Assembly (NCBI GenBank): GCA_018822365.1
Contig: JAHJKL010000061.1
Coordinates: forward strand, 13,242 to 77,241
Reading direction: 5' to 3'
Source: Candidatus Margulisiibacteriota bacterium
Lineage (GTDB): Bacteria > Margulisbacteria > WOR-1 > O2-12-FULL-45-9 > XYB2-FULL-48-7
Length of the DNA stretch: 64,000 nucleotides
A program made the translations under genes and the position numbers. A model generated the notes under the pieces. That model saw only the letters and a list, made by a program, of their open reading frames with translations. It had not been told where the DNA came from and did not search any database. Below, one piece after another: positions 5,536-12,612 of the stretch. Positions within the stretch are counted from its first letter, which is position 1. Each line of letters begins with the position of its first letter.

Positions 5536-5595
5536 TCGACCGATATTTGGCTTCATGTGTTGCCCATCCCTTACAAGTCAAAAACAATAAATGCC

Positions 5596-5625
5596 TTGAC
5601 AGGTAGTTGTAGCAACATGTATAAT
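5596..5625 (+). promoter_or_regulatory. sigma70-type promoter of the vapBC operon
   Basis: Consensus TTGACA (5596-5601), an 18-nt spacer, then TATAAT (5620-5625). The spacer holds a GTTG-N3-CAAC inverted repeat (5606-5616), a possible autoregulatory operator. Confidence 0.55.
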
Positions 5626-5658
5626 CGTTTTAAGGTTTACCAGGGGGGAGGAAAAGCA

Positions 5659-5895
5659 ATGACGATAGAGACAACGGTCTCCAAAAGAGGGCAGACGGCT
5701 GTTCCGGCGGAAATATGTAAAAAGTATAATATTAAGGCGGGGCAGAAAATCGCCTGGTTGGATTTAGGCAGTATGGTCACAATTTTGCCCTTGCCGGAAA
5801 ACCCGATCAAGGCTTTTCGCGGAAGTTCAAAAGGGATGTTAAAGACCTTAATGGAAGAAAGAAAGAAGGAACGGGAAAGGGAACGTGGAAAATAA
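5659..5895 (+). CDS. vapB: AbrB/MazE-family antitoxin (VapB-like)
   Basis: SpoVT/AbrB-type swapped-hairpin N-terminus (MTIETTVSKRGQTAVPAEICKKYNIKAGQKIAW). A G-rich RBS precedes the start. It overlaps the downstream PIN gene. Confidence 0.6.
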   Translation: MTIETTVSKRGQTAVPAEICKKYNIKAGQKIAWLDLGSMVTILPLPENPIKAFRGSSKGMLKTLMEERKKERERERGK

Positions 5896-6295
5896 CTATG
5901 TTTTGGACACCTCGGCTATTTTTTGTTTGAAGGATGACGCCCCTGGTGCGGAAAAAGTTGAAGCCATCCTCTCGACCGCCCATCGCCGACGGCAGAAGGT
6001 TATTATTTCTTTTATGACGGCGATGGAATATCTTTATATCAATTTAATGCGACATGGGGAGGAAGCGGGCCATAAAGCTTATCTTGAATTAACGCTGTTG
6101 CCGATAGAAATTGTTGAAAGTGACGAGGATTTGCGATTAATCGCGGCCGAGCTAAAAGCGGCGCATAATATCTCTTTAGCGGACTCTTGGATAGCGGCAA
6201 CGGCCAAAAAGCATAACGCGACTTTGGTCCATCGGGACCCAGAGTTTGAGCCGCTAAAAAAGAGCCTTGATTCTTTGATTTTGCCTTATAAATAG
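5885..6295 (+). CDS. vapC: PIN-domain ribonuclease toxin (VapC-like)
   Basis: N-terminal PIN motif (VLDTSAIF) with conserved acidic residues. GTG start overlapping vapB by 11 nt. Confidence 0.7.
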   Translation: MENNYVLDTSAIFCLKDDAPGAEKVEAILSTAHRRRQKVIISFMTAMEYLYINLMRHGEEAGHKAYLELTLLPIEIVESDEDLRLIAAELKAAHNISLADSWIAATAKKHNATLVHRDPEFEPLKKSLDSLILPYK

Positions 6296-6381
6296 AAGAT
6301 ATTTTAGTTGCAGAGCAATTTAGTCGCCTTTATTGGTTTTCCCCCTGTACGTATTTAACTTTTTTGCACTCTTTTACGCCT

Positions 6382-6419
6382 TGTCCATTTTCTTTGTCCG
6401 GCAACAAAGAAAATGGACG
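6382..6419. repeat. 16-bp stem / 6-nt loop hairpin in an AT-rich non-coding region
   Basis: TGTCCATTTTCTTTGT-CCGGCA-ACAAAGAAAATGGACG, perfect apart from a terminal U-G pair. No flanking T-run. Confidence 0.6.
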
Positions 6420-6434
6420 AAAAGAAAATGCCTC

Positions 6435-6471
6435 GCGCATTTCGATTTTTCTTAAGGTAGGCGAAATGCGC
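6435..6471. repeat. 10-bp stem / 17-nt loop inverted repeat
   Basis: GCGCATTTCG ... CGAAATGCGC. Confidence 0.5.
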
Positions 6472-6711
6472 AGAACACGCTGAATTTATACGACGCAATT
6501 TGCACGATTAATGAGTAAAGCTTTCAAGCGGGTCTTTCGGTTGGAAGGACAGACATTTTTGTCCCTATTGGTTACGGTGCATTTTAAGGTCAATAAGCCT
6601 TCAATGGTTTTCTACTTAGGCATGGCATGTTTGAAAAACAGGAATAAAATCAAATGTGGCATTTTGTGATAGAATTATTTAAGAAGTATTAGCCGTGGCA
6701 AGGAGTGAAAT

Positions 6712-6984
6712 ATGTATCAAGTAATATTTAAGCTTGACGGCGTAACCATTGATAACATTCAATTAGGCATTAAGAGTAACGATGAAATACCTCGTATTTT
6801 TAATGAACTTAGGAAAATTAGCGATGTTGAGGTGATAGACAAAGAAGAAGATATTAAGAAATATGTGGAGGACATGGACAGGAATCATTTTCAAACTAAC
6901 CTCCCTATTTTTATAGGATTAAAAAACTTAGGTAGTACGATTGAAAAAATAGGAAATGAAATTAAGAATACATTTCAAATTTAA
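6712..6984 (+). CDS. hypothetical small protein (90 aa), AT-rich
   Basis: ATG preceded by an AAGGAG RBS (6699-6704). Low-GC composition unlike the core genes. No recognisable domain. Confidence 0.4.
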   Translation: MYQVIFKLDGVTIDNIQLGIKSNDEIPRIFNELRKISDVEVIDKEEDIKKYVEDMDRNHFQTNLPIFIGLKNLGSTIEKIGNEIKNTFQI

Positions 6985-7050
6985 TGGCTTTTAGTTGTTG
7001 TTCTAATGTTGGCCGACTCTCGACGGCAAAACGATGGTATAATAAACTAA

Positions 7051-8322
7051 ATGTGTTACGCTATCCCCGGGAAGGTCACAGAGATTAATGGAAAAACGGT
7101 CACCGTTGACTACTTTGGCGAGAAAAAAACCGCTATCAACGAGCTTTCAAAAATTAAAATTGGCGACTATGTTTTTGCCCAGGGTGGTTTTGTTATTTCC
7201 CCTGTTGCGGAAAAAGAAGCGCTTGAAACGCTAGAAGCCTGGCAAGAACTTTTTTTTGCCTTGAAAGAGACCGATATGCGAATGTCTCGCCTGACAAGAG
7301 GGGCCATAGGGGTTGATAAAAAGTTTAGCGCCATTCTCGATAAAGCGGCCGAAGGGAGAGAACTGAAACGCGAAGAACTATTGACCCTCCTTAAAACTGA
7401 AGATCCGGCCGAACAAGAGCTTCTATATAAGACCGCCAACTTCCTCCGCCAAAAATACTTGTCCAACTCGTGTTGTGTTCACGGGATAATCGAATTCTCC
7501 AGTTACTGCCAAAACGATTGCGCCTATTGCGGGATCCGCCGGAGCAATACGATGCTGAAACGCTACCGGATGAGCGACGACGATATTTTAAGGGCGGCAG
7601 GCGAAGCGATCGAAAAGTATGGCTTTAAGGCGCTGGTCCTCCAAGCGGGTGAGGACCCTGAATATACGATTGAGCGCCTGGTCGCGCTGATCAAAGAGAT
7701 AAAGCGGCGCCATGCCGTCCTGATCTTTATCTCGGTTGGCGAGGTCGGCAAAGAAGGGCTAGCCGCATTGTACGAAGCGGGAGCGCGAGGCTTGTTGATG
7801 AGATTTGAAACCAGCAACCCCCAGCTTTACGAGAACCTCCACCCAGGAGACAAACTGCAGGACCGGATCGATGCACTAAAACATGCTTATGAAATTGGTT
7901 ATCTTATCTTGACCGGCGGGTTGATCGGTCTGCCGGCCCAAACCGATGAAGACCTGCTAAACGATATATTGCTTACTAAGGAGCTCCATGCTGAAATGTT
8001 CTCCTTTGGACCGGTCCTGCCGGAAGGGCCAAAGACCAGCCTGGTGCTTAAAACCTTGGCGGTGGCGAGGATCGTTGATCCGGTCAACGCCAAGATCCTG
8101 GTTACGACCGGCTTTGAAACGCTCGACCAAGAGGCGCGGCGTTTTGGTTTGTTGGCGGGATGTAATTCGGTTATGTTGAACGTTACTCCGATGAAATATC
8201 GGAAACTCTACAGCATTTATCCCGATCGGGCGCATGTTGAGGAAGAGATTGGCGCGCAGATCAAAGAAACCTTGGACCTTTTGCAATCACTAGGTCGGGC
8301 GCCGACTGATTTGGGGATTTAA
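7051..8322 (+). CDS. HypC/HupF-like domain fused to [FeFe]-hydrogenase maturase HydE-like radical SAM enzyme
   Basis: The N-terminal 75 aa match HypC (MCYAIPGKV...VDYFG...GDYVFAQGGFVIS..EKEALETLEAWQEL). The remainder carries HydE signatures (IIEFSSYCQNDCAYCGIRRSN, LKRYRM, VLQAGEDP, LMRFETSNP, LIGLPAQTDEDL, NVTPMKYRKLYSIYP, LGRAP). Confidence 0.8.
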   Translation: MCYAIPGKVTEINGKTVTVDYFGEKKTAINELSKIKIGDYVFAQGGFVISPVAEKEALETLEAWQELFFALKETDMRMSRLTRGAIGVDKKFSAILDKAAEGRELKREELLTLLKTEDPAEQELLYKTANFLRQKYLSNSCCVHGIIEFSSYCQNDCAYCGIRRSNTMLKRYRMSDDDILRAAGEAIEKYGFKALVLQAGEDPEYTIERLVALIKEIKRRHAVLIFISVGEVGKEGLAALYEAGARGLLMRFETSNPQLYENLHPGDKLQDRIDALKHAYEIGYLILTGGLIGLPAQTDEDLLNDILLTKELHAEMFSFGPVLPEGPKTSLVLKTLAVARIVDPVNAKILVTTGFETLDQEARRFGLLAGCNSVMLNVTPMKYRKLYSIYPDRAHVEEEIGAQIKETLDLLQSLGRAPTDLGI

Positions 8323-8371
8323 TCTTTTAGATTAAAAGAAATGACCTCTAATTATAAAAATAATATCCCCC

Positions 8372-9361
8372 TTGATAAATGGTATAATTTCCCTTGTGAG
8401 TAAGAAAAAACTACAGGCATATAATCAAATAGTTGACATCTCAAATTGGCCTATTGATGATGTTTATTCAGGCATGTATCCAAAAGGAGCAAGAGAGAAA
8501 ATTGCTTGTTTTTGCCCAAAAGAGGGGTACGAATTTTTAATTCTGAATAGAGACAGTAAATATAGACATAGATATTTATACAAACTATCTAGGTCAGCTT
8601 ATCCTTCACAGTTTTGGGCGGAAATTGTTGCGTATAGATTCGGTTGTCTTATCGGGGTGAAGGTTCCACCTGCTTTTGTTGCTATTAATGATAAGGATCA
8701 CAATTGTGGTGCATTAATAGAGTTTTTCTTTAAGGATTATCCTTATGGGGACGAACAATACTATGTTGATGGTGGAATGTTCATGAAAAAATTAATTCCT
8801 GATTACGATTTAAAAAAAGGAACACAGCATAATTTTGAAACAGTAGAACGACTTCGGGTGTTGTGTGATAATTGGTACGAAGAATGGGCAAAAATATTTA
8901 CTTTTGATGCATTAATTGGCAATACTGATCGGCATCAAGACAATTGGGGATTAATTGGAAAGCTTAGGGACGCAACTCACGGGAAATTTGTGCTTTCGCC
9001 TGCTTTTGATAATGGGACAAGCTTGGGGCATGAAATTAATGAAGAAAATTTGTATAAATTTAACACAAATAAGGTTAGTGATTACATTAATCGTGGCCCA
9101 AATCATATGAAATGGAAAATGACCGATGAAAAAAGACCTCTAATGTTTGATTTTATTCGGATGTTTTGCTTAAATAAACCAGAGCAAAGGGAATTAATGT
9201 TGAAATGCATCTCGTTTTCTATCGATAATGTTAGGGAACTAATATATGAGTTAACAAAGTTTGATGTAAAATGTAGGTTGTCGGAGAAACGCGCAGAGTT
9301 TATGGTACAATTAATTCAAGCAAGACAAGCAAAACTAAGGGAAATATTGGAAAACAAATGA
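8372..9361 (+). CDS. HipA-like (HipA_C family) Ser/Thr kinase, short form
   Basis: Conserved HipA C-terminal catalytic motif (ALIGNTDRHQDNWGLI) and a downstream PAFDNGTS motif. AT-rich gene with a TTG/GTG start. Its stop overlaps the next ATG (ATGA). Confidence 0.65.
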   Translation: MINGIISLVSKKKLQAYNQIVDISNWPIDDVYSGMYPKGAREKIACFCPKEGYEFLILNRDSKYRHRYLYKLSRSAYPSQFWAEIVAYRFGCLIGVKVPPAFVAINDKDHNCGALIEFFFKDYPYGDEQYYVDGGMFMKKLIPDYDLKKGTQHNFETVERLRVLCDNWYEEWAKIFTFDALIGNTDRHQDNWGLIGKLRDATHGKFVLSPAFDNGTSLGHEINEENLYKFNTNKVSDYINRGPNHMKWKMTDEKRPLMFDFIRMFCLNKPEQRELMLKCISFSIDNVRELIYELTKFDVKCRLSEKRAEFMVQLIQARQAKLREILENK

Positions 9362-10065
9362 AGTGGATTGAAAATATAATTGAACCCCATCGATTGTTAT
9401 TAACTTGGCAACCGTCTGACACAAAAAATCGCTTACGAAGGATAATTGGAGAATTAATTAATGACGGAGAAAAAGTGAAAATGAATTATTTGATTGGCAC
9501 AAAAGATTATGAAGAGGCAAAAAAATTAGGATTTAATGGGTTTGCTTCTTTTTCTCTTGACTCGACAACATACGATAATGTTTTAGATGTATTTATGAAG
9601 CGGTTGCCGCCGCGAAATCGTAGCGATTTTAATAAATATATGGAAGCCATTCGTATCCCTATTGACAAGCAAATATCAGATTTTGCTTTATTAGGATATT
9701 CTGGGGCAAGATTGCCGGATGACGATTATACAATTGTGCACCCTTTTGAGAATGTGCAAGGGCGATGTGAAGTTTTAACTGAAATATGTGGCTTTCGGCA
9801 CAATGAAGGGGTTAAAAACGTCGATGAGCTAGAGATTGGACAAGCTGTTTTTTTAGCAAAAGAACCCAACAATCAATTCGATTCACTTGCCGTAAAAATT
9901 ATGTTTAATAACAAGCGCTTAGGATATATTAATAGGGTGCAGATTCAAGCATTTAATGAATGGATTAATAATAATTCTATTGAAGAAGTGACGATTGAAA
10001 AAATAAATGGTTCCAAGGAAAGTCCAAAGGTTTATGTTTTTGTGAAAGTTAACAATAAGACTTGA
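9358..10065 (+). CDS. HIRAN-domain protein (C-terminal HIRAN, N-terminal unknown domain)
   Basis: The C-terminal ~100 aa fit the HIRAN pattern (VFLAKEPNNQFDSLAVKIMFNNKRLGYINRVQIQAFNEWI). Translationally coupled to the HipA-like gene. AT-rich. Confidence 0.6.
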   Translation: MKWIENIIEPHRLLLTWQPSDTKNRLRRIIGELINDGEKVKMNYLIGTKDYEEAKKLGFNGFASFSLDSTTYDNVLDVFMKRLPPRNRSDFNKYMEAIRIPIDKQISDFALLGYSGARLPDDDYTIVHPFENVQGRCEVLTEICGFRHNEGVKNVDELEIGQAVFLAKEPNNQFDSLAVKIMFNNKRLGYINRVQIQAFNEWINNNSIEEVTIEKINGSKESPKVYVFVKVNNKT

Positions 10066-10111
10066 AGCTAATGGTTTTTGACAAACCGACGCGCCCCGAC
10101 CGATCTGGGGA

Positions 10112-12612
<2,501 letters not shown>

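Follow-up and report, generated by a model that had tools for sequence, protein, structure and literature searches.

Genes at the Locus

The 64-kb stretch of a Candidatus Margulisbacteria genome analysed here (contig JAHJKL010000061.1; hereafter the window) carries two overlapping, AT-rich genes that lie downstream of a hydE-type gene and are followed, on the opposite strand, by atpC and then atpD. They encode a short HipA-family kinase and a protein that joins a HipS-like domain to a HIRAN domain, and the pair is assigned by its architecture and by hidden Markov model (HMM) matches to the hipIN/PDC-M03 modules. Both open reading frames (ORFs) named in a preliminary description of this DNA are present on the forward strand, gene 1 at 8372-9361 (329 aa from a TTG codon) and gene 2 at 9358-10065 (235 aa), with the stop codon of the first and the start codon of the second overlapping as ATGA. 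The AT-rich composition reported for them is likewise borne out, the GC fraction being 0.32-0.36 over 8500-10000 compared to ~0.50-0.60 on either side. The kinase is short, as described, but the length of 329 aa has to be revised. Translation most likely begins at a GTG codon at 8396, giving 321 aa, because V9 of the longer form occupies the column of the family consensus Met, an identical NCBI protein (P0121) has the N-terminus MSKKKLQ, and residues 1-7 of the longer form have a predicted local distance difference test score (pLDDT) below 50 in an AlphaFold model. Both gene products are 100% identical to proteins annotated on a 98-kb contig of a Candidatus Margulisbacteria metagenome-assembled genome. 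Kinase residue numbers follow the 329-aa form unless stated otherwise.

Table 1 Coordinates of the gene pair, its insertion site and other features. Positions are those of the window unless a related locus (L072, L099 or L100) is named.
Feature	Position	Strand	Remarks
hipI-type kinase gene (PDC-M03A)	8396..9361	+	321 aa from GTG; longest ORF from TTG at 8372, 329 aa
hipN-type gene (PDC-M03B)	9358..10065	+	HipS-like at residues ~1-130, HIRAN at ~136-232; start overlaps kinase stop (ATGA)
Left repeat copy, last codons of HypC-HydE gene (...GRAPTDLGI, then stop)	8296..8318	+	19/23 nt match 10090-10112
Displaced hydE 3′ relic	10084..10125	+	Holds right repeat copy 10090-10112; overlaps atpC 3′ end (minus strand)
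Duplicated hydE ends in L099	2515-2534 and 4289-4308		
Duplicated hydE ends in L100	3078-3097 and 4852-4871		
Duplicated hydE ends in L072	5246-5265 and 6250-6269		
Candidate promoter, extended -10-like TGgTATAAT	8380..8388	+	Seen by eye in the 73-nt spacer from hydE stop to GTG
Predicted terminator-like hairpin with T-rich tail	10128..10156	+	Consensus scan only; 63 nt past gene 2 stop
VapBC-like pair	5557-5895 (weak MazE/PrlF-type); 5885-6295 (PIN, E 1.2e-20)		Pfam scan

The Kinase

The HipA_C assignment of the gene 1 product is sound (34.4 bits in Pfam against a cut-off of 30.5), and the catalytic motif quoted for it in the preliminary description is present. Neither Couple_hipA nor HipA_N is detected in the protein by Pfam at E ≤ 1. 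The Gly-rich loop, at residues 31-35 of the 321-aa form, begins ~30 residues from the N-terminus, and the N-terminal subdomain of HipA (N-subdomain-1) is therefore absent, as had been stated. In an alignment of 75 homologues the catalytic set G39, K43, K71, D186, H188, N191 and D213 is invariant (75/75); these residues make up the Gly-rich loop (G39-A-R-E-K43), the ATP-binding lysine (K71), the catalytic motif (D186-R-H188-x-x-N191) and the Mg-binding motif (F-D213-N-G). The AlphaFold (AF2) model of the kinase has a pLDDT of 90.9, and Foldseek ranks CtkA first among its structural relatives (template modelling score, TM, 0.68-0.79), followed by Legionella HipT and then HipA. A profile of the 75 homologues, compared with solved structures, likewise retrieves CtkA of Helicobacter pylori (E 1.2e-10) and also Legionella HipT. 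CtkA (JHP940, PDB 3AKJ/3AKK), a proinflammatory kinase according to its PDB entry, is thus both the closest solved structure and the closest PDB sequence. From these residues and this fold, gene 1 encodes a short HipA-family Ser/Thr kinase that is apparently catalytically competent.

The HIRAN Partner

The HIRAN domain proposed for the gene 2 product is also upheld by Pfam (28.8 bits against a cut-off of 24.7, residues 141-209), and the motif quoted for it is found in the translation. HMM searches and structure prediction, suggested in the preliminary description as a check, support HipA_C and HIRAN alike, and both predicted structures are highly confident. The N-terminal ~130 residues of gene 2 have no Pfam match, in line with the earlier account, but the further statement that they belong to no recognisable family does not hold, as their fold is HipS-like. 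The same account had raised possible mimicry of HipS or of the HipA N-subdomain, and profile-profile comparison and fold agree on this point: against the HipA N-subdomain-1 sequences given in Table S1 of Gerdes et al. (PMC8262856), the N-terminus aligns with an E-value of 1.1e-4 over 83 columns, pairing FMKRLPPR with FLWGLLPDN of HipA and DFALLGYSGA with NPFALLxHVGEDCAG. The N-terminal domain of gene 2 is HipS-like.

For the C-terminal domain, structural neighbours include HLTF and Rad5, and a profile alignment with HLTF sets EPNNQFD opposite DPNNPYD. The residues of the HLTF 3′-OH pocket (N91, D94, H110 and K113) correspond to N172, D175, Y190 and R193 in the gene 2 product, which are conserved in 67, 65, 67 and 65, respectively, of 69 aligned HipN homologues. 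The predicted pocket for 3′-OH DNA ends is, by this alignment, intact.

A Member of the hipIN/PDC-M03 Family

The preliminary description regarded the pairing of these two proteins as undescribed. This view has to be abandoned: modules of the same architecture were defined as hipIN in 2021, and the pair is in addition listed as candidate PDC-M03 in PADLOC-DB. A hipIN module (Gerdes, Baerentsen & Brodersen, mBio 2021, PMC8262856) consists of a HipI kinase and of HipN, a putative antitoxin built from two domains, one HipS-like, the other HIRAN. HipI kinases form Hip clade XI, are 279-321 aa in length and have four conserved motifs, and the 14 modules catalogued in that study come from Actinobacteria, Firmicutes, Proteobacteria and Cyanobacteria (PMC8262856). 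The kinase of the window is a catalytic core of 321 aa with all four motifs, a Gly-rich loop near the N-terminus and no N-subdomain-1; its partner, encoded directly downstream, is HipS-like at the N-terminus and HIRAN at the C-terminus. A core-only HipA-family kinase with the four motifs, the lack of HipB and a downstream HipN are the features held in common with the catalogued modules, from which the present one differs in originating from Candidatus Margulisbacteria, outside their phyla.

The two adjacent, co-oriented genes also match the PDC-M03A and PDC-M03B HMMs of PADLOC, in each case over nearly the full length of the model: PDC-M03A aligns with kinase residues 19-327 (model positions 2-277 of 280, 1.4e-39) and PDC-M03B with HipN residues 10-232 (model positions 5-227 of 250, 2.5e-35). 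NCBIfam gives no meaningful match for either protein. PDC candidates were nominated by "guilt-by-embedding" in BREX, DISARM or type I restriction-modification (R-M) loci (Payne et al. 2024 preprint, PADLOC-DB v2), whereas the pair of the window is embedded in housekeeping DNA rather than in a defence locus. The locus accordingly reveals no new kind of system and is a member of a known candidate family. What it adds is an extension of hipIN/PDC-M03 to a new phylum, a HipS-like assignment backed by structure, a quantitative measure of co-conservation together with evidence of fusion, the recognition that P2-like coliphages carry fused homologues, and a cleanly delimited natural cassette with recognisable insertion scars, an insertion architecture that is new here.

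Other HipA-type systems fit the locus less well. Canonical HipBA is rejected, as no helix-turn-helix (HTH) ORF lies in or next to the insert (the absence of a HipB-like HTH antitoxin gene from it had been correctly noted before) and the kinase has 321 aa compared to ~440 aa for HipA with N-subdomain-1. HipBST, known from E. coli O127 and Legionella, has the gene order hipB-hipS-hipT with a stand-alone HipS upstream. The window has the reverse order, with two genes, the kinase first, the HipS-like domain fused to HIRAN and no HipB; the HipS resemblance of gene 2 lies below Pfam detection, and the kinase is structurally nearer to CtkA than to HipT. HipL (Gerdes 2021) carries the same three domains in the same order on one polypeptide, but here a TGA at 9359-9361 separates the ORFs and the second, starting with the ATG at 9358, is in another frame. 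A three-gene cluster of DEDD nuclease, HipA and HIRAN is likewise not represented, since no such nuclease gene adjoins the pair in the window and RNase_T-type families are not common among neighbours of the family. HipAD/DS-6 (DefensePredictor, Science 2026, PMC13092281) also combines a HipA-family kinase with a non-HipB partner. Its anti-phage defence was shown experimentally and requires a kinase residue (PMC13092281), but the partner carries DUF3037 and DUF1829 rather than HipS-HIRAN, and the system bears in no direct way on hipIN.

Conservation of the Pair

A scan of species-representative genomes yields 61 HipN-like loci, from Gammaproteobacteria, Planctomycetota, Nitrospirota, Margulisbacteria/Saganbacteria, Hydrogenedentes, Alphaproteobacteria and other taxa. 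Co-conservation elsewhere, for which the preliminary description had proposed a gene-neighbourhood search, is evident: 54 of the 61 loci have a co-oriented gene for a kinase homologue immediately upstream. At some loci (L019, L052 and L059) the kinase match is only partial. Among the seven loci without a kinase call, L007, L013 and L034 offer too little upstream sequence and L061 holds a HipN fragment, leaving three genuine exceptions, in which a YhcG nuclease (L006) or a DarG macro-domain protein (L015) stands upstream or the HipN-like gene is an orphan (L047). In each of the 52 loci that could be evaluated, the kinase and HipN genes meet at a junction of -14 to +10 nt (12 show the ATGA overlap, 16 a gap of 1 nt), and tight coupling is therefore a family trait.

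The exception with DarG comes from a Nitrospiraceae metagenome-assembled genome (MAG). At L015 4877-6729 the HipN-like gene directly follows a full-length DarG (PADLOC 4.4e-137) with no kinase; no DarT is evident immediately upstream, a Schlafen/AlbA_2-HATPase_c_4 protein taking that place. The effector may have been swapped at this locus, or a defence islet rearranged.

An exhaustive search of 1.84 billion representative proteins with the HipN profile returns 229 matches at E ≤ 1e-30 and 667 at E ≤ 1e-10. Nearly all are 216-258 aa long, but a few of 538-547 aa carry the match at the C-terminus. One of these, P0316 (547 aa), is a single-chain kinase-HipS-HIRAN fusion matched by both PDC-M03 models, as is a 519-aa protein of Escherichia phage 899. 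Three arrangements of the HipS-HIRAN unit are seen, with a kinase in trans (the window), with a kinase in cis (the phage fusion) and next to DarG without a kinase (L015). A conserved third component was sought among 130 neighbouring ORFs and rejected, none being found; type I R-M, MADS, DRT-like or helicase genes occur in a minority of neighbourhoods.

Insertion at the hydE 3′ End and Mobility

The gene pair is flanked by two copies of the end of the hydE coding sequence (Table 1), and the nucleotide differences between them in the shared RAPTDLGI codons are all synonymous. Chance does not account for this repeat, a codon-degenerate pattern for which has two sites in 64 kb and none in 100 shuffles. 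Comparison of both copies with the C-termini of the closest hydE orthologues (85% identity) indicates, because of how those orthologues end, that the left copy is the normal hydE C-terminus and the right copy a displaced relic. The cassette so bounded extends from about 8319 to 10089 (1.8 kb) and contains no recombinase ORF, which rules against an integrase-bearing island. It appears to be a horizontal acquisition that went into the HypC-HydE gene at its 3′ end.

The nearest homologue of the pair (64-66% identity) occupies the same hydE site in a second lineage, represented by L099 and L100, where the flanking ribD and hydE are ~73% identical to those of the window. In these loci both ORFs and their overlap are kept, the pair has a GC fraction of 0.36 vs 0.53-0.61 for the flanks, and a longer hydE relic comes after it. 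In L072 a duplicated hydE end brackets a different, lower-GC insert of ~1 kb with two overlapping small genes, and the left and right copies resemble each other only in a core of ~25 nt. No recombinase is found in the inserts of the window, L099/L100 or L072. The hydE 3′ end thus behaves as a site at which small two-gene cassettes have inserted repeatedly in related genomes, the kinase pair lying there in two lineages and a different cassette in a third.

The two genes of the L072 insert have doubtful affiliations: the 109-aa product is possibly winged-HTH-like by eye, with a weak SoFic_C match only, and the 180-aa product has a weak match to the DUF2204 nucleotidyltransferase family. In the loci with the closest hydE relatives (L064 5272-8924 and L065 5220-8552), three minus-strand genes lie downstream of hydE, all absent from the window, with products of ~122-139, 553-702 and 334-346 aa, the two larger of which have no Pfam match. 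The three genes stand between hydE and atpC in L065; the L064 locus yielded no atpC.

Beyond this site, the genomic context of the pair varies from genome to genome, and 30 of 44 loci show a GC content lower in the pair than in its flanks, the difference averaging -5.5 points (Wilcoxon p ~1e-9). In the Clostridioides (C. difficile) phage phiCDKH02 the pair lies between ImmA/XRE lysogeny genes and the integrase gene, and a Nostoc plasmid carries genes annotated as HipA-like and HIRAN. The fused gene of the P2-like Escherichia phage 899 (PV533660.1; L062 3492-5696) is found between the portal gene and replication gene A, with a DEDDh 3′-5′ exonuclease gene directly before it. In Gram-positive bacteria, one third of DEDD deoxydinucleotide nucleases adjoin HipA+HIRAN pairs (PMC11706625), an association that the phage 899 arrangement echoes. 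Yersinia phage GMG73, unannotated and with a record of the same length as that of phage 899, gives an equivalent match of the same size.

Mechanistic Proposal and Alternatives

The best explanation of the locus, held here with moderate confidence, is a hipIN module that acts as a DNA-end-sensing kinase system on a horizontally acquired cassette. HipI and HipN would be made in a fixed ratio via translational coupling and would form a complex in which HipN supplies the missing N-subdomain in trans, its HipS-like domain holding the kinase inactive by analogy with HipS and HipT. The HIRAN pocket would then bind free 3′-OH DNA ends, supplied by phage DNA as it enters or replicates or by a degraded chromosome, and such binding would relieve the inhibition. 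Once freed, the kinase would phosphorylate an essential component of translation, presumably an aminoacyl-tRNA synthetase, as HipA does with GltX and HipT with TrpS, with growth arrest or abortive infection as the outcome. Toxicity of the kinase, its neutralisation by HipN, the sensing of DNA ends, the kinase target and a phage phenotype are all things that we infer from domain content and from these analogies. The scheme is close to one already in print, in which the HIRAN domain recognises DNA ends of invading phage, the kinase is activated and abortive infection follows (PMC8262856); the mechanistic guess of the preliminary description coincides with this published hypothesis, and the TA or defence function of the pair is itself taken as a hypothesis. 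If demonstrated, control of a translation-blocking kinase by a DNA-end-sensing HIRAN domain, via a split-off portion of that kinase's fold, would constitute an unusual trigger. In favour of the proposal stand the family match, the invariant catalytic residues, the linkage and occasional fusion of the two genes, the carriage on mobile elements, the embedding from which PDC-M03 was derived, and the defence shown for HipAD/DS-6, which is a different HipA-family kinase system.

Several observations weigh against this proposal. In the kinase, Ile44 (8501-8503) directly follows the Gly-rich-loop Lys, a position filled by Ser or Thr in 44 of 75 homologues; because of this replacement, control by autophosphorylation may differ from that in relatives, and the site at which HipI kinases are proposed to autophosphorylate may be missing. 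In HipN, Lys or Arg occupies the column of the Trp in FLWGLLPD of HipA, and its inhibitory contact need not, for that reason, copy that of HipS. The HIRAN stacking motif is H148/N149 here vs Tyr-Tyr in most homologues, with H148 corresponding to HLTF Y72. At the level of gene context, the neighbours of the pair in the window are housekeeping genes, and R-M or MADS genes are found in only about 3-4 of the ~35 neighbourhoods surveyed, a weak defence enrichment. Our literature search found no experimental study of the hipIN pair, PDC-M03 or HipL; the papers word it as putative, as untested (the PDC systems; Payne et al. 2024 preprint) or as something that "remains to be investigated", and in later publications the HipA+HIRAN pair figures as a predicted defence system only.

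An unlikely alternative, though one with several points in its favour, is a type II TA addiction module, in which HipN is a labile antitoxin, HIRAN takes over the role of the HipB HTH in autoregulation at the module's own promoter, and the pair serves to stabilise the cassette or its host element. The lack of a HipB-like HTH in the insert, the fusion of a DNA-binding to a neutralising domain as in many antitoxins, and carriage on prophage, plasmid and inserted cassette would all suit such a role, and HipN was classed as a putative antitoxin by Gerdes et al. (PMC8262856). Characterised HIRAN domains, however, bind 3′-OH DNA ends and not specific operators (PMC8262856), and the end-binding residues are conserved here. 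A toxin-first order with tight coupling is moreover atypical of autoregulated type II TA systems, and covalent kinase-HipS-HIRAN fusions are incompatible with differential degradation of an antitoxin; the fused variants argue for physical and regulatory coupling of the two activities, and against a labile, separately degraded antitoxin.

Slightly less probable is an endogenous switch for DNA damage or replication stress, whereby HipN would respond to replication forks of the cell itself that have broken or regressed, and the kinase would impose dormancy or persistence without being tied specifically to phage. HIRAN domains of HLTF and Rad5, the structural neighbours of HipN, work at stalled forks, HipA kinases are classic persistence factors, and the Gram-positive association with DEDD nucleases (PMC11706625) ties the pair to DNA breakdown products. 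No such nuclease adjoins the pair in the window, however, and the pair is patchily distributed, moves horizontally and has a foreign GC content, all of which speaks against a housekeeping switch of this kind; carriage in accessory slots of prophages and the derivation of PDC-M03 from R-M/BREX embedding fit conflict systems better. A decaying passenger cassette without current function is very improbable: the insert is small and has no integrase, and the partial kinase matches of L019, L052 and L059 could be read as erosion in related loci, but each ORF is intact, every invariant residue of the family is kept, both structure models are highly confident, and the second lineage at the same site, at 64-66% identity, has kept both ORFs and their overlap.

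A broader reading goes beyond the DNA-end-sensing kinase module itself. The HipS-HIRAN unit might be a portable DNA-end sensor coupled to varied effectors, and Margulisbacteria might in addition capture and exchange two-gene cassettes at a dedicated site in the hydE 3′ end, a combined generalisation that we regard as doubtful.

Expression Signals and Neighbouring Genes

The candidate promoter upstream of the kinase gene (Table 1) is not called by a promoter consensus scan and has no good -35 element. It ends 7 nt ahead of the probable GTG start, and an mRNA initiated from it, if the element is used, would be nearly leaderless. No obvious Shine-Dalgarno sequence precedes either candidate start (8380-8398 region). 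Because the interval from hydE to gene 1 holds no terminator-like site, transcription read-through from hydE is also possible.

The upstream neighbour, called HydE-like in the preliminary description, does include a radical-SAM (HydE/BioB-like) part, but a Pfam scan shows the 7051-8322 product to be a fusion in which a HypC/HupF domain (residues 1-64, E 7.5e-16) precedes the radical-SAM/BATS enzyme. This HypC-HydE fusion is kept in more than 30 metagenomic relatives at 55-85% identity. The VapBC pair that the same description placed next to the module is 2 kb away, on the far side of hydE; its PIN toxin is solid, whereas the antitoxin has a weak MazE/PrlF match only (E 0.02-0.04). Between ribD and hydE there lies, besides this VapBC-like pair, an AT-rich ORF at 6712-6984 (GC ~0.33) of 90 aa without a family match. 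In L099/L100 ribD abuts hydE, and in L064 a 292-aa minus-strand gene stands at this position; the ribD-hydE junction (5536-7050 in the window) is variable too.

A short contig binned as a "Patescibacteria group" MAG (L001; JAHJCN010000022.1, 2,125 bp) contains the hydE end, both genes and the atpC end, all 100% identical in protein sequence to the window. The probable cause is wrong binning of the same population or, alternatively, a break in the assembly around a cassette that varies between strains.

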